Source: Alphaproteobacteria bacterium (lineage in GTDB: Bacteria; Pseudomonadota; Alphaproteobacteria; GCA-2731375). Taken from it: DNA of 64,000 nt. The position numbers and the translations under genes are program-made. Position 1 is the first letter of the stretch. Each line of letters opens with the position of its first letter. Below are positions 5,438-12,848 of this stretch, one piece after another. The stretch spans positions 1,298,391-1,362,390 of the forward strand of contig CBDEHK010000001.1 in NCBI GenBank assembly GCA_965238305.1, read 5' to 3'. The notes under the pieces are model-generated. The model was not told where the DNA came from. It worked only from the letters and a program-made list of their open reading frames with translations, and searched no databases.

Positions 5438-6049
5438 GTGCATGTATCATTTCTGCGGAGACCTTCTTTGCCCTGGGAAAAGCGCTATGACGAAACCGAC
5501 GTGCTTGAACGCGCCATGCAGGCGTTTTGGGCGCGCGGTTACGAAGCGACGTCGATGCGCGATCTGGTCGATGCGACCGGTATAAACCGGGGCAGCATTT
5601 ATACCGCCTATACCAGCAAACATGCCCTGTTCATGCAGGCCTTGCGCCATTACGACAAGATTCATCGGGCCGATTATCTGGACCGTATTGCCGATCAATA
5701 TGCACCGAAGGAGGCCATCCTCGCCGCCTTCGACGGGGCGGCTAAACAAACCGGTCGCAAAGGCGCGCCAGCCGGCTGTTTGCTGGTGAATACGGTTCTT
5801 GAACTGTCGCCGCACGACGGCGAAGCGCGGGACTTTGTTGATGGCTGCTTGAAAGCGGTGGAGGATTTTTTCTGCGCCCGGATTATCGCCGCTCAACAAC
5901 AAGGCACTATTGCCAGCCCCGTGCCGCCGCGCAAAACCGCGCAGGCGCTACTGGGTCTATTTTTGGGACTGCGTGTACTGACCCGTGGGAAACCGCACAA
6001 GGCTGCTATCGACGCCATCACATCTCAGGCCAGGATGATGTTGGAATAA
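5438..6049 (+). CDS. TetR/AcrR family transcriptional regulator
   Basis: N-terminal HTH region ...ERAMQAFWARGYEATSMRDLVDATGINRGSIYTAYTSKHALF is the TetR signature. Start codon uncertain (the ORF-track start is GTG at 5438). Confidence 0.85.
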   Translation: MHVSFLRRPSLPWEKRYDETDVLERAMQAFWARGYEATSMRDLVDATGINRGSIYTAYTSKHALFMQALRHYDKIHRADYLDRIADQYAPKEAILAAFDGAAKQTGRKGAPAGCLLVNTVLELSPHDGEARDFVDGCLKAVEDFFCARIIAAQQQGTIASPVPPRKTAQALLGLFLGLRVLTRGKPHKAAIDAITSQARMMLE

Positions 6050-6099
6050 AAAAATTTGGCTATTTTGGAACGAACGTTCAACACAAACAGGAGAGCGAT

Positions 6100-6669
6100 A
6101 TGAGTGTCTCATTAGTGGAAAGAGAACAGGCCGACGACGAAACCATAGCTTTTTACGATAAAGCCGAAGAACGGTTTCAGGCCCTGTTGAATATCTTCAA
6201 GGTGTTCGGTCATCAGCCGGAATACGGTACCGTCTTCACCGATCTGATCATGGCGGTGCTGAAAGACGGGGTGATCGATTGGCAGACCAAGGAGCTGCTG
6301 ATCCTGAAAGCGACCCAGCGCAATCAATGTCAATATTGCGTCGTCCAACACGAACGGGTCTCAAACATGCTAGGGATCACGGACGATAAAATTGCCGACC
6401 TGGATGGCGAGAAATACAAAACCAGTGCGCATTTCAGCGACGGCGAAAAGGCCCTATTGGACCTGACCGTGCAAATCGGCGAAGACGCCAACCGGGTCCC
6501 CAAAGAACTCTGGGATCGCCTGCACGCGCATTGGAATGAAGCGCAGATTGTCGATGCGGTGTTTGTCATCACCATCTACATCGCCGTCTCCAAGTTTGGC
6601 GATGCCTTGGGGGTACAATTGGAATCGATGTTCGACGGCGTCGAGCCGATCCTGCACGTCGCCCACTGA
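6100..6669 (+). CDS. carboxymuconolactone decarboxylase family (AhpD-like) protein
   Basis: 189 aa with a CQYCVVQHE motif (CxxC...H, AhpD-like). Lies downstream of the TetR gene on the same strand. Confidence 0.6.
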   Translation: MSVSLVEREQADDETIAFYDKAEERFQALLNIFKVFGHQPEYGTVFTDLIMAVLKDGVIDWQTKELLILKATQRNQCQYCVVQHERVSNMLGITDDKIADLDGEKYKTSAHFSDGEKALLDLTVQIGEDANRVPKELWDRLHAHWNEAQIVDAVFVITIYIAVSKFGDALGVQLESMFDGVEPILHVAH

Positions 6670-6799
6670 GCGGCTTGAGCAGTGCGGATTGTGCCGGGTC
6701 CGCACTGGCGTCAAGCTGGTTCCAATAGCGGCTTTAGGGGCGAGTATTTAGGCGTTCAATTAGAATAATTGGGCGATATTCCGGCGTCTTATTCCCCAT

Positions 6800-7450
6800 T
6801 CACCGGAGTGGAATTTGTAGGACTGCTTCCAGATCGGTTAGGGCCTGGGCGGCGCCGAGGACTTTGATGGTTTGCATGCCCATGGCTTTGGCCGGCTTTA
6901 AATTGATCCCGAGATCATCCAGGAAGACCACTTCCGCCGGGCTGACATCGGCCATTTCGCAGGCGATTTCATAGAAGCGTTGTTCCGGTTTACGGACCCC
7001 GACTTGGCTCGATTCCACCACATGATGGAACAGCGTCATGATCTCGGCGATCTGCGCGGCTTTCTCCGCCGAGCGGGCCATGCCCGGGCCGGCGCCGCTT
7101 CGAACATTGTTGGTCAGACAGGCAATGGTGAATTGCTGACCGACCCGGCGCAGGGCTTCGACCATTTCCGGGCGCACCTCGCCGGACAGCAATGCCAGCA
7201 CGTCGCGCCCCGGTACCCGATAGCCGAGGGCAGTGGCTTCGGCTTCAAATAGATCGCTGAAGCCGTCCGGATTGATGTCGCTGCGTTCCAGTTTGGCCCA
7301 GGCATTGTCTGCCGGATTATGGCTATTGACGGTACGGATGAAATCCATCGGCAGGCTATTTTGTTCTTCATAACGGTTGAAAGCGTCGAACGGACTGGAC
7401 AGGATGACGCCGCCGAAATCCCAGAAAACGGCCTTTATCTGATGTGTCAT
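6800..7450 (-). CDS. HAD-superfamily hydrolase (subfamily IA-like)
   Basis: N-terminal KAVFWDFGGVIL (HAD motif I, DxD/G) and C-terminal FLDDLGINLKPA (motif IV). 216 aa. Confidence 0.75.
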   Translation of the reverse strand: MTHQIKAVFWDFGGVILSSPFDAFNRYEEQNSLPMDFIRTVNSHNPADNAWAKLERSDINPDGFSDLFEAEATALGYRVPGRDVLALLSGEVRPEMVEALRRVGQQFTIACLTNNVRSGAGPGMARSAEKAAQIAEIMTLFHHVVESSQVGVRKPEQRFYEIACEMADVSPAEVVFLDDLGINLKPAKAMGMQTIKVLGAAQALTDLEAVLQIPLR

Positions 7451-7459
7451 GAAAATGGA

Positions 7460-7864
7460 CTACTCTTTATCGGTGGGTTCAAACGCAAGCGAGGCGGAAT
7501 TCATACAATATCGCAGGCCGCTCGGTTGCGGGCCGTCTTCGAAGACATGACCCAAATGGGCATCGCATTTGCTGCACAAAGCTTCGGTGCGGACCATGAA
7601 GTGGGAGCGATCGGTTTCCGTCTCCACATTGTCGCCATCGATTGGGCCCCAAAAGCTAGGCCAACCGGAACCAGACTCGAATTTTGTCTCGGACGAAAAG
7701 AGCGCCTGGCCGCAGCCGATGCAAGAAAAGACGCCGCTTCGTTTTTCGTCGTTCAGCGGTCCCGTAAAAGCCCGTTCGGTGCCTTTTTGCCGGGTAACGT
7801 AATAGGATTCCTCGCTCAATTGCTGGCGCCATTCGGCGTCCGTTTTTTGCACCTTTTCCGTCAT
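7460..7864 (-). CDS. msrB: peptide-methionine (R)-S-oxide reductase
   Basis: Product MTEKVQKTDAEWRQQLSEESYYVTRQKGTERAFTGPLNDEKRSGVFSCIGCGQALFSSETKFESGSGWPSFW...RTEALCSKCDAHLGHVFEDGP..RYC is a typical zinc-binding MsrB with 2x CxxC. Start set at ATG 7864 with RBS AGGAAG. The longer ORF-track start runs into the upstream gene. Confidence 0.9.
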   Translation of the reverse strand: MTEKVQKTDAEWRQQLSEESYYVTRQKGTERAFTGPLNDEKRSGVFSCIGCGQALFSSETKFESGSGWPSFWGPIDGDNVETETDRSHFMVRTEALCSKCDAHLGHVFEDGPQPSGLRYCMNSASLAFEPTDKE

Positions 7865-8580
7865 GATCTTCCTTTCAAGGCCGTTTGGATATTGGCCATT
7901 TGGATATCGATGTCGATATTCATGATCGACGTTATCTCCAGGTCGCGATCTTCGAAGACATGAGTTTCCAGCTTCTTCTCGCGCCAAGCCGCGATCTTAA
8001 TGTCTCTCTCCCGGATCAGCAATTCGATTTGCGGATAAAAAAACGCGACCATGGCCGTAAGCCAGCGATTGGTCGGCCAGGACGGCCAGGCATGGTCGAT
8101 TTGGAAGTGATCCAACAAGGCGATGGTATTGTCGCCAGTGAACCAATTCTCGTCCGTGACCCAGCGATTGGTGGTGAAAAGCTGTTCGGGGAAACCCTTT
8201 TTGTCCATAGAGATCGCAATTAGGTGGCAGACGATGTCATCGCCGCTTGGCCACTCGGTATCACTGTCGTTTTCGACCGGACCGGTAATATCGAGTAACC
8301 CTTCTTCGCGGATGAAGGTGTGGAAATGGCCATGTTCGCCGCTTTCCGGTCGATGCGCATGATAATAATATTGCCCGTGGGTCTCGCTATCATAGACATC
8401 GCCGTCGGGGTAATGATCCCATTCGTAAAACGTCTCGACCCGATTAATCAGTTCGTCGACCACGTTACCACTGATTTTGTGCAGGACGCGGTTGCATTCA
8501 AACACTTCTTCGCCACCCGCCTGCATTTTCCGCAAGCGCCCGGTGGAGAGGTCGGCAAAATTTATCTCACGTGTGGACAT
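7861..8580 (-). CDS. conserved hypothetical protein, His-rich, translationally coupled to msrB
   Basis: 239-aa ORF. Its stop overlaps the msrB start (ATGA). Contains the His-rich stretch YYYHAHRPESGEHGHFHTF. Family not recognised. Confidence 0.5.
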   Translation of the reverse strand: MSTREINFADLSTGRLRKMQAGGEEVFECNRVLHKISGNVVDELINRVETFYEWDHYPDGDVYDSETHGQYYYHAHRPESGEHGHFHTFIREEGLLDITGPVENDSDTEWPSGDDIVCHLIAISMDKKGFPEQLFTTNRWVTDENWFTGDNTIALLDHFQIDHAWPSWPTNRWLTAMVAFFYPQIELLIRERDIKIAAWREKKLETHVFEDRDLEITSIMNIDIDIQMANIQTALKGRS

Positions 8581-8614
8581 CGTTCATATTCTCAAATTGA
8601 GGTTTCTTGATAAC

Positions 8615-9487
8615 TTATTCCCGGACCAAGCGAAAGCCGATCAGGATATGTTTCAAATGATCTGGTCGGGAATGATGGGCGGCAGGCCGGCAGACGCCGC
8701 AACCTTTGTCGTCCCACGATCCACCCTTGACGATATGGCGGCCTTTGCCCTTTGCCGTTGCCGTCCATTCAAAAACTTGTCCAGCCGGATCGACAAGACC
8801 GTGTTGGCTGTTGCCTTTGGAGTATTGGCCGACCGGTACTGTATCGAAAGGCCCCATATCGTGGCTGTTGAGCCGGCTTGGATCATATTCATTGCCCCAG
8901 GGGAAGATTTTCCCTTCGTCACCGCGCGCGGCGCGTTCCCAGTCATCCTCGCTTGGTAGGCGCCAGTGATGGCCGGTTCGCCTGGACAACCACGCCGCGT
9001 AGGCCTGAACGTCGTCGAAGGACACCAATACAACCGGATGATCTTCCCGCCCTGCAGGCATCTGGCCATCCAACCAGGCATGCCGGCGGGTCCGCGTAAA
9101 TGGGTGGATCAGGCCATAACTTCGCCAAGTTGCCGAATCGACATTCGGTGTCGGATGGCCGGTTTGGTTGATGAATTCAGCATATTGCCGATTGGTGATG
9201 AGGGTTTGGGTAATCGCATAGGCTTTACCTTGGCGTTCAGATAGGGGCGGTTCGTCTTCGTACCATTTCTGTTGCCGGGTCACGCTATGGCCGTAGGCGG
9301 CTTCATCCAGCATATAGGCCAGTTCTTTTTCGGCGCGGTTTGAACCGATGAAATAGGATCCAGCTGGAATGTGAATAACTTCAGGTGCAGCGAGATCGCT
9401 TGCGAAGGTCGGTTGGCCCACAAATATCGCCGCCAGCACCGGCAAAATACCAATTGTTCCGATTTTACATCTGATTTTCTGCATCAC
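8615..9487 (-). CDS. formylglycine-generating enzyme (FGE/SUMF1) family protein, secreted
   Basis: Signal peptide (MMQKIRCKIGTIGILPVLAAIFVGQPTFA). FGE-sulfatase domain hallmarks are RVIRGGSW-like GGSWDD, HPVVLVSFDDVQAYAAWL, WRLPSEDDWERAARG and FPWGNEY. Confidence 0.8.
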   Translation of the reverse strand: MMQKIRCKIGTIGILPVLAAIFVGQPTFASDLAAPEVIHIPAGSYFIGSNRAEKELAYMLDEAAYGHSVTRQQKWYEDEPPLSERQGKAYAITQTLITNRQYAEFINQTGHPTPNVDSATWRSYGLIHPFTRTRRHAWLDGQMPAGREDHPVVLVSFDDVQAYAAWLSRRTGHHWRLPSEDDWERAARGDEGKIFPWGNEYDPSRLNSHDMGPFDTVPVGQYSKGNSQHGLVDPAGQVFEWTATAKGKGRHIVKGGSWDDKGCGVCRPAAHHSRPDHLKHILIGFRLVRE

Positions 9488-9629
9488 CCTCAGGTAAGTC
9501 GAAAATCCCCAAATAGAAAGGCCAATTGCGTCGAATCACATAATGGTGAGCCATTGTTACTAGTCTCCGTGATCAGAGGCGTCCACATTGGGTCCGGGAA
9601 CATCAACAATCAAATTGAGGAGGCACCTC

Positions 9630-10928
9630 ATGTACGCTCAAAAGAGCAAACTATTATCATCGACAGTCATTCCGTTGGTCGCCGTGGCGGCGTTGTCATC
9701 GGCTGGCGTCATTACCATGGCAAATATCAGTTTCGCGGCCAGCAGCGCGATACCCAACAACCCAACCGCGGTATCACGCCCGGCAACGCCAGACGGATCG
9801 TACCAGGTCGCAGCCTGTACCGCCAAGAAAGCGTGTAATCCGTGCGCGACCAAAAAGAAAGGCTGTAATCCTTGCAACCCCTGTGGGGCAAAAAAAGCCT
9901 GCAACCCATGCAATCCTTGCGCGACCAAGAAAGCCTGCAATCCTTGTAACCCTTGCGGTGCGAAAAAAGCTTGTGGCGCCTGCAATCCATGCAATCCGTG
10001 CGGTGGTGCATCTGCTGCGGGGTTATCACAAAAATGCATGGTGCCGCGGTTGATGAAGGCATCGCTTTGCAATCCTTGCAATCCTTGTGCGGCGAAAAAG
10101 GCCTGCAGTCCTTGCGGCGCAAAAAAAGCCTGCAATCCGTGCGCAACCAAGAAAGCTTGCAATCCTTGCGCAACGAAGAAAGCTTGCAACCCTTGTGCAA
10201 CCAAGAAAGCCTGCGGAGCTTGCAATCCCTGTGGCGCCAAGAAAGCCTGCGGAGCTTGTAATCCTTGCGCAACCAAAAAAGCCTGCAATCCATGCAATCC
10301 CTGTGGCGCCAAGAAAGCTTGTGGAACCTGCAATCCTTGCGCAACCAAAAAAGCCTGCAATCCATGCAATCCCTGTGGCGCCAAGAAAGCTTGCGGAGCC
10401 TGCAGTCCTTGTGGCGGCGCGGCGGCACCTGAATTAACCGCGGCAGAAGCCAATTCGGTTTATGACTGCTTGAAAGCCGATATGGTCAAAGGTTATGCAA
10501 AATCAGGACTGAAAGACGCCAAACATTATGCCGATTGGGACGGTTATTCGACGCAGCCTTATGTTTCCGACACCCATGGCGGCCGCTATGTGTTCAATCG
10601 TGGGAATGCGCAGGCCAAATCTTACGGCAAATATGAAGCGGCCGGCCGCATGCCGGTCGGTGCAAAATTGGCGAAAGACAGCTTTGTCGTCAAAACCAAC
10701 GGTAAAGTGGGCTCCGGGCCGCTCTTTATTATGGAAAAAATGGCCAAGGGCTTCAGTAAGGCAAGCGATAATTGGCGGTACACGATGGTGATGCCGAACG
10801 GTCAATTGTTCGGGATGACCAACGGCAAGAATTCTGCCGGAATGAAATTCTGTTATGAATGCCATGCCACTGTTGCGGAAGGCCAAGATAGTCTGATGTT
10901 CCTACCGGACGATTATCGGGTCAATTAG
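9630..10928 (+). CDS. secreted Cys-repeat protein fused to a cytochrome P460-like c-type haem domain
   Basis: ATG 9630 follows a GAGGAGG RBS. Signal peptide, then about 210 aa of tandem KKACNPC(NPC)(G/A)(A/T) repeats with over 60 Cys, mostly as CxPC pairs. The C-terminal roughly 160 aa carry a single CXXCH (FCYECHAT) near the C-terminus and resemble the cytochrome P460 / c'-beta family. Confidence 0.6.
   Translation: MYAQKSKLLSSTVIPLVAVAALSSAGVITMANISFAASSAIPNNPTAVSRPATPDGSYQVAACTAKKACNPCATKKKGCNPCNPCGAKKACNPCNPCATKKACNPCNPCGAKKACGACNPCNPCGGASAAGLSQKCMVPRLMKASLCNPCNPCAAKKACSPCGAKKACNPCATKKACNPCATKKACNPCATKKACGACNPCGAKKACGACNPCATKKACNPCNPCGAKKACGTCNPCATKKACNPCNPCGAKKACGACSPCGGAAAPELTAAEANSVYDCLKADMVKGYAKSGLKDAKHYADWDGYSTQPYVSDTHGGRYVFNRGNAQAKSYGKYEAAGRMPVGAKLAKDSFVVKTNGKVGSGPLFIMEKMAKGFSKASDNWRYTMVMPNGQLFGMTNGKNSAGMKFCYECHATVAEGQDSLMFLPDDYRVN
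9820..10430. repeat. in-frame coding tandem repeats with 27-nt (AAAGCCTGCAATCCTTGCGCAACCAAG-like) and 36-nt units
   Basis: Near-identical units recur roughly 25 times in the sequence. They cause long spurious stop-free antisense ORFs (9638..10453, 9727..10428, 10087..10437, 9953..10261). Confidence 0.85.
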
Positions 10929-10954
10929 CTCGGCAATCGTTCGCCCCCGAACTT

Positions 10955-10991
10955 GGCGGCAGTCCGATGACTGCCGCCATTTTCTTTTGTT
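10955..10991 (+). terminator. rho-independent terminator after the Cys-repeat/P460 gene
   Basis: GGCGGCAGT-CCGATG-ACTGCCGCC, a perfect 9-bp stem, followed by ATTTTCTTTTGTT. Confidence 0.7.
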
Positions 10992-11042
10992 CCGCCCGAC
11001 ATTCACGTATGCTCGCTGCTCCGACAAACGGGAGCGAAAATT

Positions 11043-11654
11043 ATGGCGCGGGTCGAGTTTTTCTTTGATTGTTCCAGTCCATGGACCTATCTGGCGTTCC
11101 ACAATTTCGCCGTGATGGCCGATGAATTGGGCCAGGCAGTGGAATGGAAACCGATCCTCGTCGGCGGGATATTCAATACCATCAATCCTTCCGTCTATGT
11201 TTCACGTGAAACACCGGTGCCGGCGAAGGCGCGATATCAGGCTAAGGACATGCAAGACTGGGCCCGCCAAGCTGGAATAAAGATCACCTGGCCGACCACG
11301 GTCTTTCCGGTCAACAGTGTGAAGGCGATGCGGGCTTGTATTGTCGCCGCGCAAAGCGACCGCTTGATGCCTTATGCCCGGGCCGTATTCGAAACCTATT
11401 GGGGGGACGATCGGGACATTAGTCAGGATGACGTGTTGGCCGATATTGCGACAAAATGCGGTTTCGATGCGCTGGAGATGGCTGAGAAAATCCAAACTGA
11501 CGAGATCAAACTGACGTTGCGAGAAAATACCGAGGCGTTGATGCGGCGCGGCGGCTTCGGTTCGCCGACGATTTTCCTTGATCGGGACGATATGTATTTT
11601 GGCAACGACCGCTTGCCCTTGGTGCGGGCGGCTCTGGCACGGGCGGCGGCTTGA
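11043..11654 (+). CDS. 2-hydroxychromene-2-carboxylate isomerase family / DsbA-like thioredoxin-fold protein
   Basis: N-terminal VEFFFDCSSPWTYLAF and overall length (203 aa) match the HCCA-isomerase (kappa-GST/DsbA-like) family. Confidence 0.7.
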   Translation: MARVEFFFDCSSPWTYLAFHNFAVMADELGQAVEWKPILVGGIFNTINPSVYVSRETPVPAKARYQAKDMQDWARQAGIKITWPTTVFPVNSVKAMRACIVAAQSDRLMPYARAVFETYWGDDRDISQDDVLADIATKCGFDALEMAEKIQTDEIKLTLRENTEALMRRGGFGSPTIFLDRDDMYFGNDRLPLVRAALARAAA

Positions 11655-11724
11655 CAGTACCAAACGCAACTGGCTGAATATGCTACCTGCCGATCTCGAT
11701 ATCCCGCGAAAGGAGGCGACTGAG

Positions 11725-12609
11725 ATGGATTATGTCAGTTATATCGACAAGACCCGCGATTATTATCTCTCGCAAGGTTACGACAAACCCTATCAATGGG
11801 CGCAGCATGATCAGGTGCCATTTCAAGCGCTGGAAAAACCGCTCGCTGGGTGCAAACTGGCGCTCCTGACGACCAGCGAACTCGCGATCAAATATGACGA
11901 GGCGACGGAAGAAAATCCTATCACCGAAGAAGGTTTCCGTAGCGTCTATGCCATTCCCGGCGACACTCGAAGCGAACTTTTTTATAGCCGCACCAACAGT
12001 TTTGATCGTTACGCCACCCATCTGGATGACGTGAACAGCTATTTCCCGGTCGATCGCTTGCGCGAAGCGCTGGCGGCCGGCCGCATCGCTGACATCCCAG
12101 AACGCCTTTATGGTGCCTATAATAATTACAGTGTCAAAAAAGTTCTCATCGACGAAGCGCCAAAAGCCCTGGCGATGTGCCGGGAAGACAACGTTGATGC
12201 AGCAATATTGGTCCCGGTCTGACCAGTTTGCCATCAGACCGTGAGTCTGATTGCCCGCTACCTGGAAGAACATGGCATCCCAACCGTGGTGATCGCGACG
12301 GCCCGGGATATTGTTGAAAGCTGCAATGTCCCGCGATTTTTGTTTGTCGATTTTCCCCTTGGTAATCCGTGTGGGGAACCCTTCAATGTGGCGCAGCAGC
12401 GGGAAATCTTCGAAAGTGCGTTAGGTGTGCTGGAAAACGCGACAGAACCCGGTATCACCATCGAAGCCGGCTATCGCTGGAGCCAGGGCGAAGCCTGGAA
12501 AGATAGCATCTTTACCGAAGCGCAACCGTTCCTATCAGGTGAGGCCAAGCAGGCTTGGCTGGATCGCAAAGACAAATACCGCGAGTTGAAACAGAAAGGC
12601 GAGCTTTGA
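11725..12609 (+). CDS. glycine/sarcosine/betaine/proline reductase protein B (GrdB/PrdB)-family selenoprotein candidate with an in-frame UGA (Sec) at 12220..12222
   Basis: Track ORFs 11578..12222 and 12241..12609 are in the same frame and separated only by TGA. Read-through gives ...AAILVPV-U-PVCHQTVSLIARYLEEHGIPTVVIATARDIV..., a UxxC motif. The UGA sits in the 5' arm of a 7-bp hairpin GGTCTGA-CCAGTTTGCCA-TCAGACC (12216..12240). N-terminal MDYVSYIDKTRDYYLSQGYDKPYQWAQHDQVPF resembles the GRDB family. Start set at ATG 11725 after an AGGAGG RBS. Confidence 0.55.
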
Positions 12610-12848
12610 TGGCGGCGGCGGTGATCGTCTATTCGACGCCATTTTGCATCCCGTGCGAACAGCTGAAGCAGTATCTCACCGATCACAATGTCGTCTTCGA
12701 AAGCCGCGACCTGATGATGGACGAAGGCGCGGCGGAACGCTTGGAAGCCTTCGGCATCCGCTCCACCCCGGCCCTGGAAGTGGCCGGTCAAATCTACGCC
12801 GGCGCCACCCTAACCCCGGAAAAAGTGCAGGAATTGCTGGAGCTGTAG
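12608..12848 (+). CDS. glutaredoxin-like small redox protein
   Basis: 80 aa, MAAAVIVYSTPFCIPCEQLKQYL..., with a CxxC (CIPC) active site in a glutaredoxin/NrdH-like context. Its start overlaps the upstream stop (TGATG). Confidence 0.7.

Follow-up and report, generated by a model that had tools for sequence, protein, structure and literature searches.

A conserved gene neighbourhood linking an FGE-fold protein with a CGxC loop, DUF6969 and cysteine-repeat haemoproteins

The stretch of DNA analysed here (the window; 64,000 nucleotides of Alphaproteobacteria bacterium, GenBank assembly GCA_965238305.1, contig CBDEHK010000001.1, positions 1,298,391 to 1,362,390) carries a gene for a protein of the formylglycine-generating enzyme (FGE)-sulfatase fold, the FGE-like gene (8615..9484, minus strand), which diverges from a gene for a cysteine-repeat (NPC-repeat)/P460-family haemoprotein, the repeat/P460 gene (9630..10928, plus strand), and is followed by a gene of the DUF6969 family (7861..8580, minus strand). 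Comparison with other genomes reveals that the pairing of FGE-like and cysteine-repeat genes occurs far above chance and is a conserved functional neighbourhood. We give a probability of roughly 35% to the reading that this neighbourhood is a periplasmic Cu(I)/thiol module in which the FGE-like protein would act on the repeat proteins, the repeats would buffer a soft metal, and the haem would serve as an electron conduit. A preliminary description of the window had noted the divergent arrangement and proposed that both proteins are secreted; the open reading frames (ORFs) and domain matches confirm the divergence, across 145 bp rather than the 140 bp given there, and secretion is consistent with the hydrophobic N-termini of both proteins and of their orthologues.

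The evidence for the conserved neighbourhood comes from a scan of one-genome-per-species contigs with an alignment of FGE-like orthologues, which returned more than 560 matches, the best 80 loci being analysed. These loci are phylogenetically related and belong mostly to marine Alphaproteobacteria (Rhodospirillales, Kiloniellales, Minwuiales, Hyphomicrobiales, Pelagibius, Denitrobaculum, Aestuariispira), with some from Gamma- and Betaproteobacteria; flanks extend to at most 10 kb and are shorter in many loci. With a repeat ORF defined as one holding at least four NPC or at least eight C[GA]AC motifs, 49 Cys-repeat ORFs were found in 33 of the 80 loci, every one of them within 3 kb of the FGE-like or DUF6969 gene (411 kb searched), and the remaining 671 kb of farther flank contained none; the 64-kb window has exactly one. 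If repeat ORFs were evenly spread, the chance of all 33 loci having them in the near 38% of the sequence would be about 1e-14, a figure that the relatedness of the genomes inflates. The DUF6969 gene lies near the FGE-like gene in 61 of the 80 loci by tblastn and in 73 by ORF clustering, and in 60 loci it is adjacent and on the same strand, with a median gap of 89 bp. DUF6969 is thus the tightest partner of the FGE-like gene, and the unit is at least a trio with the repeat gene; the functional pair suggested in the preliminary description holds up as a conserved neighbourhood, in both directions of search, but is incomplete in having missed DUF6969.

At least five gene orders with repeat ORFs are present across Alpha- and Gammaproteobacteria, and this variation of order and orientation between lineages argues against simple inherited synteny. 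With the FGE-like gene set on the plus strand, the order of the window (arrangement A) is a repeat/P460 gene on the minus strand diverging from the FGE-like gene, which is followed by DUF6969 on the plus strand and in some cases by msrB (window, L008, L015, L028, L066, L042, L057, L062, L072, L076, L080), L057 being from the culturable Aestuariispira insulae CECT 8488. In arrangement B (L038, L041, L060, L061, L067, L074) DUF6969, a gene for a small repeat peptide and the repeat/P460 gene, all on the minus strand, diverge from the FGE-like gene, beyond which come U182, YeeE and DUF302. The gammaproteobacterial arrangement C (L014, L020, L048, L058) has on the plus strand a gene encoding a SoxA/TsdA-type haem domain between two repeat regions, the FGE-like gene and DUF6969, then U182 and a small repeat peptide gene, the latter again on the plus strand. 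DUF6969, U182, the FGE-like gene and the repeat/P460 gene follow one another on one strand in arrangement D (L036, L063; L044), and in arrangement E (L004, L035) the repeat/P460 gene on the minus strand stands before DUF6969 and the FGE-like gene on the plus strand. The other loci (arrangement F) have the FGE-like gene and DUF6969 and no repeat ORF in the fetched locus, most of them sharing a TAXI ... cytochrome c/rhodanese ... DUF2336 synteny.

The association is also evident when the search starts from the other side. When metagenomes were scanned with an alignment of 30 P460-like domain sequences, 80 further loci (L081-L160) were obtained, of which 71 encode the Cys-repeat N-terminal region (tblastn), and among the P460 loci with at least 2.5 kb of upstream sequence 19 of 34 carry both the FGE-like gene and DUF6969. 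The two gene families therefore co-occur in other genomes, and the link between the FGE-like gene and the repeats is strong in both directions without being obligatory. In 53 of these 80 metagenome loci a Sel1-repeat gene lies directly downstream of the repeat/P460 gene (e.g. L131, 715-1230); the window has a DsbA-like gene at that place.

The preliminary description took the P460-like haem to be part of the partnership. A P460 domain is indeed present in the window protein, but the constant partner of the FGE-like gene is the Cys repeat, which occurs with P460, with a SoxA/TsdA-type haem, or alone. In arrangement C the repeats flank on both sides a SoxA/TsdA cytochrome c domain (PF21342, 37.5 bits against a cutoff of 27), and these genes (L014, 8992-9897; also L020, L023, L048 and L058) immediately precede the FGE-like gene on the same strand. 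The domain has a CxxCH and, 39 residues beyond the haem His, a Cys near the place of the haem-ligand Cys in TsdA, which is reminiscent of the His/Cys-ligated haem of TsdA and SoxA. Many loci also encode proteins of 80-140 amino acids that consist of a signal peptide and repeats alone. The repeat unit differs by lineage (CNPCAAKK, NPCNPC, CGACGAC), and what is shared is closely spaced Cys, small residues, Lys and the absence of aromatics. Three genes track repeat-positive loci, namely U182 (12 of 13), the YeeE/YedE sulfur transport gene (10 of 12) and DUF302 (9 of 10), none of which is in the window. U182, a secreted protein of about 180 amino acids with no match in Pfam or the Protein Data Bank (PDB), is read as cupredoxin-like. 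Loci with U182, YeeE or DUF302 include L037, L038, L041, L055, L060, L067, L070 and L074.

The FGE-like ORF (8615..9487) has its probable start at ATG 9484, with GAGGG just 5' of it as read from the sequence, and encodes 289 amino acids that match Pfam FGE-sulfatase (PF03781) over the whole domain (profile 2-255 of 255, 6e-42, 144.5 bits). We made an AlphaFold2 (AF2) model from 34 orthologues (mean predicted local distance difference test score, pLDDT, 82; predicted template-modelling score, pTM, 0.82), and with this model as query Foldseek returned FGE-fold structures only (E 1e-14 to 3e-18), with probability 1.00 for more than 40 of them. The full-length domain match and the fold together place the protein in the FGE-sulfatase superfamily. 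Its N-terminus, MQKIRCKIGTIGILPVLAAIFVGQPTFA/SD, has the appearance of a Sec signal peptide (amino acids 1-29, 9398..9484, minus strand, cleavage at about TFA/SD) and, on reading the sequence, has no lipobox; comparable hydrophobic N-termini are found in the aligned orthologues, and we take the protein to be Sec-exported, all signal peptides in this study having been judged by eye rather than with a predictor. A homologue search limited by its word index gave at least 2704 matches, the orthologues being 58-69% identical and the top 120 matches 59-69%. Across the 34 aligned orthologues about 84 positions are invariant at a mean identity of about 62%, indicating an enzyme rather than a scaffold. 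One homologue of 496 amino acids (P0006), inspected as a possible Rosetta-stone fusion, consists of two FGE-like domains.

The closest solved relatives are the same by sequence and by structure. ToxD (7spq), CalU17 (6vqp) and pFGE/SUMF2 (1y4j) give the best sequence matches (profile E 7e-38 to 1e-23), along with OvsA, and also the best structural ones (Foldseek 3e-18 to 4e-16), followed by FGEs and PvdO, with template-modelling (TM) scores of about 0.6-0.68. These matches cover mainly the middle of the domain, the alignments to ToxD and CalU17 ending before the C-terminal loop discussed below, and the contexts of these proteins (the toxoflavin cluster, the calicheamicin cluster and the eukaryotic endoplasmic reticulum) differ from that of the FGE-like locus. 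Aerobic FGEs (human SUMF1, T. curvata, S. coelicolor) share the fold (Foldseek E about 1e-15, TM about 0.6), the Pfam family and a conserved Cys pair in a C-terminal loop after a GGS motif, but are only 21-24% identical; they rank later by sequence, and HMMER aligns them just over residues ~140-241, ending before the Cys loop. The FGE-like gene differs further in lacking a linked sulfatase and in being linked to DUF6969 and Cys-repeat proteins.

The feature that sets this subfamily apart is the loop GGSWDDKGCGVCR (8687..8725, minus strand; amino acids 254-266), which holds Cys262 and Cys265 in a CGxC motif. It is invariant in all 34 aligned orthologues, and GGSWDD[KSR]GCG[VIT]CR is present in 98 of 100 orthologues or loci. 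Catalytic aerobic FGE of the SUMF1 type has two Cu(I)-ligating cysteines, spaced Cx4C, in the loop after GGS (C336 and C341 in the human enzyme), and the one catalytic use known for a Cys pair of this fold is the Cu(I)- and O2-dependent oxidation of peptidyl cysteine. The human loop is GGSYMCHRSYCYRYRCAAR, in which C336 and C341 are the Cu(I) ligands. The FGE-like Cys pair is spaced CxxC rather than Cx4C and is shifted, and the loop is two residues shorter than that of human FGE between GGS and the AA(R/H) anchor; one of its cysteines may coincide with human C341, in a register that the sequence does not fix. The C-terminal Cys loop could be aligned to pFGE and PorK only, whether the whole protein, a profile or the C-terminal 65 amino acids was used, and the pFGE loop that aligns with the CGxC region is Cys-less. 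The conserved pair thus appears to sit where the Cu(I)-binding loop of FGE lies, but it is not the FGE pair; the presence of Cu-binding cysteines, which the preliminary description had raised as a question, is answered in part, by two invariant Cys in the equivalent loop with a different spacing. Linear Cu(I) binding by Cys pairs is known both for FGE and for the CxxC sites of Atx1/CopZ-type chaperones, and by analogy Cu(I) binding by the CGxC pair is plausible.

The repeat/P460 gene is monocistronic and encodes 432 amino acids, with a ribosome-binding site GAGGAGG (9617-9623, plus strand) before its ATG at 9630 and, after it, an intrinsic-terminator-like hairpin (10954..10979, plus strand; 11-bp stem, 8 of them GC, and a T-run). 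The protein consists of a hydrophobic N-terminus (MYAQKSKLLSSTVIPLVAVAAL...), about 205 amino acids of repeats (9813..10427) and a 166-residue C-terminal domain (10428..10925). Units such as ACNPCNPC[AG][AT]KK make up the repeat region, which is split by a single central CMVPRL (10035-10052); repeat peptides include ACNPCNPCAAKKA and SQKCMVPRLMKA. The first 270 amino acids hold 46 of the 49 cysteines, and the repeat region is 22% Cys, 16% Lys, 20% Ala, 12% Pro and 10% Asn, with no aromatics. The 21 CNPC units are encoded by 11 different 12-mers whose variation is entirely at third codon positions, and the tandem periods of the DNA (9, 27, 36, 54 and 72 nt) are multiples of 9 nt. Among homologous loci with a complete 5' end, 84 of 85 keep a Cys-rich N-terminal extension, and in these 84 the frame is open from the hydrophobic N-terminus (KLLSSTVIP...) through 80-490 amino acids of Cys-rich repeats into the haem domain. 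Together, the third-position variation, the periodicity and the open frame in 84 of 85 homologues show that the repeat region is protein-coding.

By composition (22% Cys, no aromatics) the array is metallothionein-like. It shares with SmtA/BmtA and MymT a Cys content of about 22% in CxxC spacing, a richness in Lys, the lack of aromatics and low complexity, and differs from them in that the repeat/P460 protein is predicted to be exported, has a far greater length, is built of tandem repeats with a haem domain attached, and has no sequence homology to them.

The isolated C-terminal domain matches Pfam Cytochrome_P460 (PF16694) with 30.4 bits against a gathering score of 27 (E 5.5e-7), whereas the full-length 432-residue protein gives no Pfam match; homologues are assigned to PF16694 in precomputed annotation. 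It has the C-terminal CxxCH of P460 cytochromes, here CYECH at amino acids 408-412 (10851-10865), and is accordingly described as a P460-family haem c domain. An invariant Lys (in LAKDSF, 10668-10685) and an invariant Glu (in FIMEKM, 10725-10742) precede the first haem Cys by 59 and 39 residues, and these are candidates, from their conservation in the sequence, for the P460 cross-link Lys and the distal carboxylate. According to a P460 review, catalytic P460s are defined by a haem-Lys cross-link (Lys70 in NeP460) and a distal carboxylate, Glu96, and just five residues besides CXXCH are conserved within the family (PMC11928373). That low conservation explains why comparison of the haem domain with solved P460 and c'-beta structures, by phmmer and with a 30-sequence profile, gave nothing under E 0.09. 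Relative to cytochrome P460 and c'-beta, then, the likeness lies in the Pfam match, the CxxCH near the C-terminus and the candidate Lys and Glu upstream of it; the differences are the N-terminal Cys-repeat arm of 200 amino acids (80-490 in homologues), the lack of a sequence match to solved members even by profile, and source bacteria that are not named as nitrifiers or methanotrophs. The same review contains no mention of "fusion" or of an "N-terminal" extension (PMC11928373).

Public gene calls obscure this architecture. The repeat/P460 protein of this genome is called as 148 amino acids (P0121), and most homologues as 148-167; a collection of 15 billion proteins holds the 148-residue version and not the full-length one. 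Periplasmic attachment of haem c requires a signal peptide, which the truncated calls lack, and the full-length 432-residue reading is therefore the functional one. The antisense strand over the repeats is itself open (9638-10453 and 9727-10428, minus strand; translation GLQAPQAF...), and in one database "DUF6969" protein (P0377) the N-terminus is extended by sequence resembling the antisense translation of a neighbouring repeat gene.

The central motif drew attention as a possible target of the FGE-like protein. One C-x-[VIL]-P-[RSG]-[LVIM] motif is present in 74 of 83 P460-type homologues and more than one in none, and in most of the 74 the fourth residue after the Cys (+4) is an Arg, which has the same place in the sulfatase CxPxR. 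As a universal target the motif was rejected, since neither the SoxA/TsdA-type nor the small repeat proteins contain it and its presence shows no correlation with FGE adjacency; we regard it as a lead and not as the explanation.

The DUF6969 gene begins 34 bp downstream of the FGE-like gene and encodes 239 amino acids without a signal peptide, matching Pfam PF22308 over its full length (6.1e-79, profile 4-201 of 201). Its homologue search returned 3855 matches, the protein is conserved at 50-77% identity, and the family comprises 1235 representative clusters (50% identity) at E <= 1e-3. The invariant residues include H56, H74, H76, E82, H83, H85, H87, H119 and H163, many of them in the cluster YYYHAHRPESGEHGHFHTF (8314-8370, minus strand), and in the predicted model (pLDDT 87, pTM 0.88) they are mostly on adjacent beta-strands. 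This His/Glu cluster suggests that DUF6969 is a cytoplasmic metalloprotein. A profile search against PDB sequences found nothing, no publication in the literature searched mentions the family, and Pfam attaches no function to it. Two rare fusions (P0387, P0436) join DUF6969 to a coiled coil of ~250 amino acids, one transmembrane helix and a bacterial SH3 domain, a layout in which DUF6969 would face the cytoplasm from its membrane anchor in the organisms concerned; the other fusions are just tandem or mis-called ORFs. The fusions thus confirm a cytoplasmic location and give no hint of function.

The msrB gene (methionine-R-sulfoxide reductase; 7460..7864, minus strand; Pfam SelR, 3.9e-51) overlaps the DUF6969 stop with its start (ATGA, 7861-7864), which points to translational coupling of the two, and the FGE-like gene, DUF6969 and msrB, in this order on the minus strand, are likely an operon. 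The presence of msrB after DUF6969 is limited to the closest relatives (L008, L015, L028, L066, L081, L083, L091, L092). The divergent intergenic region (9485..9629, 145 bp between ATG 9484 and ATG 9630) contains a conserved motif, TCACATAATGGTGAGCCATTGTTACTAG (9536-9563; TCACA-N7-TGARSCA-N2-GTKAYTAG), common to the divergent regions of L081, L125, L138, L140, L144 and L066, which could be a shared operator or promoter element; no inverted repeat, Rfam family or sigma-70 consensus match was found in 9485-9629.

Given the invariant Cys pair and the linked Cys-repeat proteins, we propose a periplasmic module for the handling of cysteine thiolates together with a thiophilic metal, for which Cu(I) is the likeliest candidate; this reading is favoured because the Cys pair of the FGE fold is known catalytically for Cu(I)/O2 oxidation of peptidyl cysteine. 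The FGE-like protein would hold Cu(I) by its CGxC loop, as FGE does by its own Cys pair, and, as an O2-dependent oxidase or maturase, would take cysteines in the repeat protein as its substrates. Once mature, the metallothionein-like array would serve as a buffer for copper or some other soft metal, with the haem fused to it passing electrons in or out. For DUF6969 we envisage a cytoplasmic role, perhaps upon the precursor ahead of its export or as a sensor of metal or redox state, and expression of both arms would be coordinated from the divergent 145-bp promoter region.

Parts of these kinds have been described independently in other bacteria, joined there in one chain, which sets a precedent for their combination. 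The published landscape of MNIO enzymes includes bufferin fusions of the form Buf1|Cytochrom_C|FGE-sulfatase, in which one polypeptide unites a Cys-peptide metallophore with a c-type cytochrome and an FGE-like domain, and bufferins are copper-protective; oxazolins are secreted EGKCG-repeat proteins that bind copper and protect against it (PMC12452194). The trio resembles these systems in its secreted, signal-peptide-bearing Cys-rich or Cys-repeat proteins, in having a dedicated cytoplasmic metalloenzyme partner (a role that DUF6969, as a putative metalloprotein, may fill here) and in that c-type cytochrome and FGE-like domains are at times fused to, or associated with, such proteins (PMC12452194). 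It differs in its partners, which are DUF6969 and the FGE-like protein, in a repeat unit of CNPC-AAKK and in having a fused haem as a rule and not as an exception; no MNIO (DUF692) or DUF2063 gene was recognised in the neighbour clusters inspected (160 loci). The resemblance is functional and architectural only, and homology is not claimed. A tentative extension, somewhat unlikely as it stands, is that the trio is an MNIO-independent counterpart of the bufferins and oxazolins, in which NPC-repeat metallophores, usually wired to haem, would be matured by DUF6969 and a periplasmic copper-dependent CGxC FGE-fold oxidase; DUF6969, a cytoplasmic His-rich protein with a predicted fold that has no solved relative, would be the second enzyme, and the system may have been hidden in part by gene callers that truncate or mis-call the repeat genes. 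We see in the trio a secreted Cys-repeat protein with putative dedicated handling enzymes, one of them an FGE-fold paralogue with a new active-site loop. The open-access literature searched contains nothing on an FGE with P460 or on Cys-rich, signal-peptide-bearing P460 proteins in Alphaproteobacteria, and "CNPC" appears there only in unrelated acronyms.

Several observations weigh against the proposed copper/thiol module. Within the fetched loci (flanks up to 10 kb) 47 of 80 have no repeat ORF, and even with at least 3 kb on both sides one is present in just 19 of 50; in the reciprocal search 15 of 34 P460 loci have neither the FGE-like gene nor DUF6969 within about 6 kb. The main substrate of the FGE-like/DUF6969 pair may thus be something else. 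DUF6969 has a cytoplasmic location, unlike the FGE-like and repeat proteins, which are exported. The CxxC spacing is not the Cx4C of FGE, the loop is modelled with a confidence of only about 70, and HMMER aligns the C-terminal loop to no true FGE chain, whichever query is used. The change of the repeat unit between NPC and CGAC suits a physico-chemical role better than sequence-specific modification, the accessories of repeat-positive loci (YeeE/Sulf_transp, DUF302 and the SoxA/TsdA haem) have a flavour of sulfur, and no copA, cueO, cus or copC/D gene was recognised in the neighbour clusters inspected.

These sulfur-related accessories point to an alternative in which the repeat cysteines are carriers, like that of SoxY, onto which the haem domain in cis would oxidatively load thiosulfate or sulfane sulfur; processing or recycling of the thiols so loaded would fall to the FGE-like and DUF6969 proteins. 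SoxAX/SoxY and TsdA carry out haem-catalysed loading of thiosulfate onto cysteine, FGE chemistry is itself thiol oxidation, the gammaproteobacterial relatives place potential carrier cysteines on both sides of a SoxA/TsdA domain, and YeeE/YedE and DUF302 are nearly confined to repeat-positive loci. In most repeat proteins, that of the window included, the haem domain is nevertheless of the P460 family, for which no sulfur-related role is known; the GGCGG arm of SoxY has a single Cys and not an array; the window has none of the three accessories; and no sox, dsr or sqr family was recognised in the neighbour clusters inspected. Rhodanese neighbours are mostly in repeat-negative loci (10 of 12), reflecting synteny. 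We regard this alternative as unlikely, if still a serious contender. We would give a similarly low probability to the proposal that the genes are merely co-regulated neighbours without direct interaction, the FGE-like/DUF6969 pair acting on a different substrate, be it a small molecule or a protein, and the repeat protein belonging to the same thiol, oxidative or metal stress regulon. It would account for the more than half of FGE-like/DUF6969 loci without a repeat ORF nearby, for the much larger numbers of FGE-like (2704) and DUF6969 (3855) matches than of P460 matches (322, from a search limited by its word index), and for a window rich in thiol-redox genes (AhpD-like CMD, msrB, DsbA-like, GrdB-like with UxxC, and a glutaredoxin-like ORF). 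Regulation alone is hard to reconcile with repeat ORFs that occur solely beside the pair and stay there despite rearrangements and a change of haem domain.

The remaining alternatives take the FGE-like protein or the haem more literally. Conversion of repeat cysteines to formylglycine, at C-x-P sites or at the central C-x-V-P-R-L, with the aldehydes cross-linking lysines, would suit repeats that are Lys-rich and have many of their Cys in a C-N-P-C (C-x-P-x) context, and a central motif with, mostly, the Arg at +4 of CxPxR; we consider it quite improbable, because the Pro of the central motif is at +3 and not +2, the motif is missing from the FGE-linked SoxA/TsdA-type and small repeat proteins and does not follow FGE adjacency, the catalytic loop is CxxC, and the nearest solved relatives are non-FGE paralogues. 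More improbable still is the N-oxide module offered in the preliminary description, a P460 acting on NH2OH or NO with an FGE-like accessory that would, for example, deliver copper, as in nirK-nirV. The haem domain does belong to Pfam Cytochrome_P460, and its invariant Lys and Glu are roughly in the order of the cross-link Lys and distal carboxylate given in the review (PMC11928373), but no sequence similarity to characterised P460s could be detected for the domain, P460 needs no copper, and no nir, nor, hao or amo family was recognised in the neighbour clusters inspected. The idea is further contradicted by the FGE-like gene being linked equally to SoxA/TsdA-haem repeat proteins and to haem-less repeat peptides. 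NirV is likewise a periplasmic FGE-fold accessory whose gene adjoins that of a periplasmic redox metalloprotein; here the partner is a haem/Cys-repeat protein and not a copper enzyme, and we rejected NirV as a class, known NirV proteins being compared by context alone, since nirK is not beside the gene in the window and none was recognised in the neighbour clusters inspected.

That the FGE-like protein belongs to an ordinary known class of the fold (sulfatase-maturing FGE, PvdO-, EgtB- or OvoA-type, or type VI secretion system (T6SS) immunity protein) has hardly any probability left, even though the fold itself is the generic FGE-sulfatase one. All NCBIfam equivalog scores are far under their cutoffs: 67.4 bits against 500 for PvdO (NF051459), whose pvd context is also absent, 57.7 against 360 for EgtB (TIGR03440), 55.4 against 420 for SenA (NF041186), 43.1 against 400 for TIGR04344 and 54 against 350 for GldK. 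EgtB, OvoA, SenA and OvsA are further set aside by the length of 289 amino acids in a single domain, with no DinB-like iron domain. SUMF1-type FGE acts on type I sulfatases with CxPxR and is often linked to a sulfatase gene; the FGE-like protein is not of this type, with a CxxC spacing in place of Cx4C and closest solved relatives that are non-FGE paralogues, and no sulfatase was recognised in the neighbour clusters inspected, the whole genome lying outside that search. FGE-like T6SS immunity proteins are on record in a preprint (bioRxiv 10.1101/2021.05.21.445229). The neighbour of the FGE-like gene is a conserved cytoplasmic DUF6969 protein, kept at 50-77% identity, unlike fast-evolving effector/immunity pairs, and no T6SS gene was recognised in the neighbour clusters inspected, an inspection made without PADLOC or T6SS models.

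The surrounding part of the window (5438-12848) is dense in thiol and redox genes, with TetR, CMD/AhpD-like, HAD hydrolase, msrB, DsbA-like (HCCA-isomerase-type), GrdB-like and glutaredoxin-like members, and may be a redox-stress island or a coincidence. The GrdB-like ORF (11683-12609, plus strand; weak Pfam GRDB match) has one in-frame TGA (12220-12222), and reading through it gives ...AILVPV-U-PVCHQ..., a UxxC motif; a hairpin CAGAC-CGTGA-GTCTG (12234-12248) follows 12 nt downstream of the TGA. Called as two ORFs (11578..12222 and 12241..12609), it is probably a single selenoprotein gene, to judge from its sequence. A glutaredoxin-like ORF (12555-12848) comes after it.

FGE is, to our knowledge, the one member of its fold for which a copper-dependent mechanism of catalysis has been defined, and for most of its many bacterial paralogues no substrate is known. 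Our findings give a large FGE-like subfamily a genomically linked candidate substrate, the Cys-repeat proteins, and a partner, DUF6969, making its function directly testable, and they reveal a branch of the P460 family that bears a long Cys-repeat arm in marine Alphaproteobacteria not named as nitrifiers. They also show that automated annotation drops the Cys-repeat arm together with the signal peptide, so that the P460-like proteins as called could not receive haem; a systematic failure to annotate repeat genes, through truncated starts and antisense artefacts, would bias surveys of protein databases. If the proposed role in handling copper or another soft metal is true, the trio would represent a second and enzymatically unrelated route to secreted Cys-based metal buffers, beside the MNIO-dependent bufferins and oxazolins, and one in which such buffers are linked to haem electron transfer.

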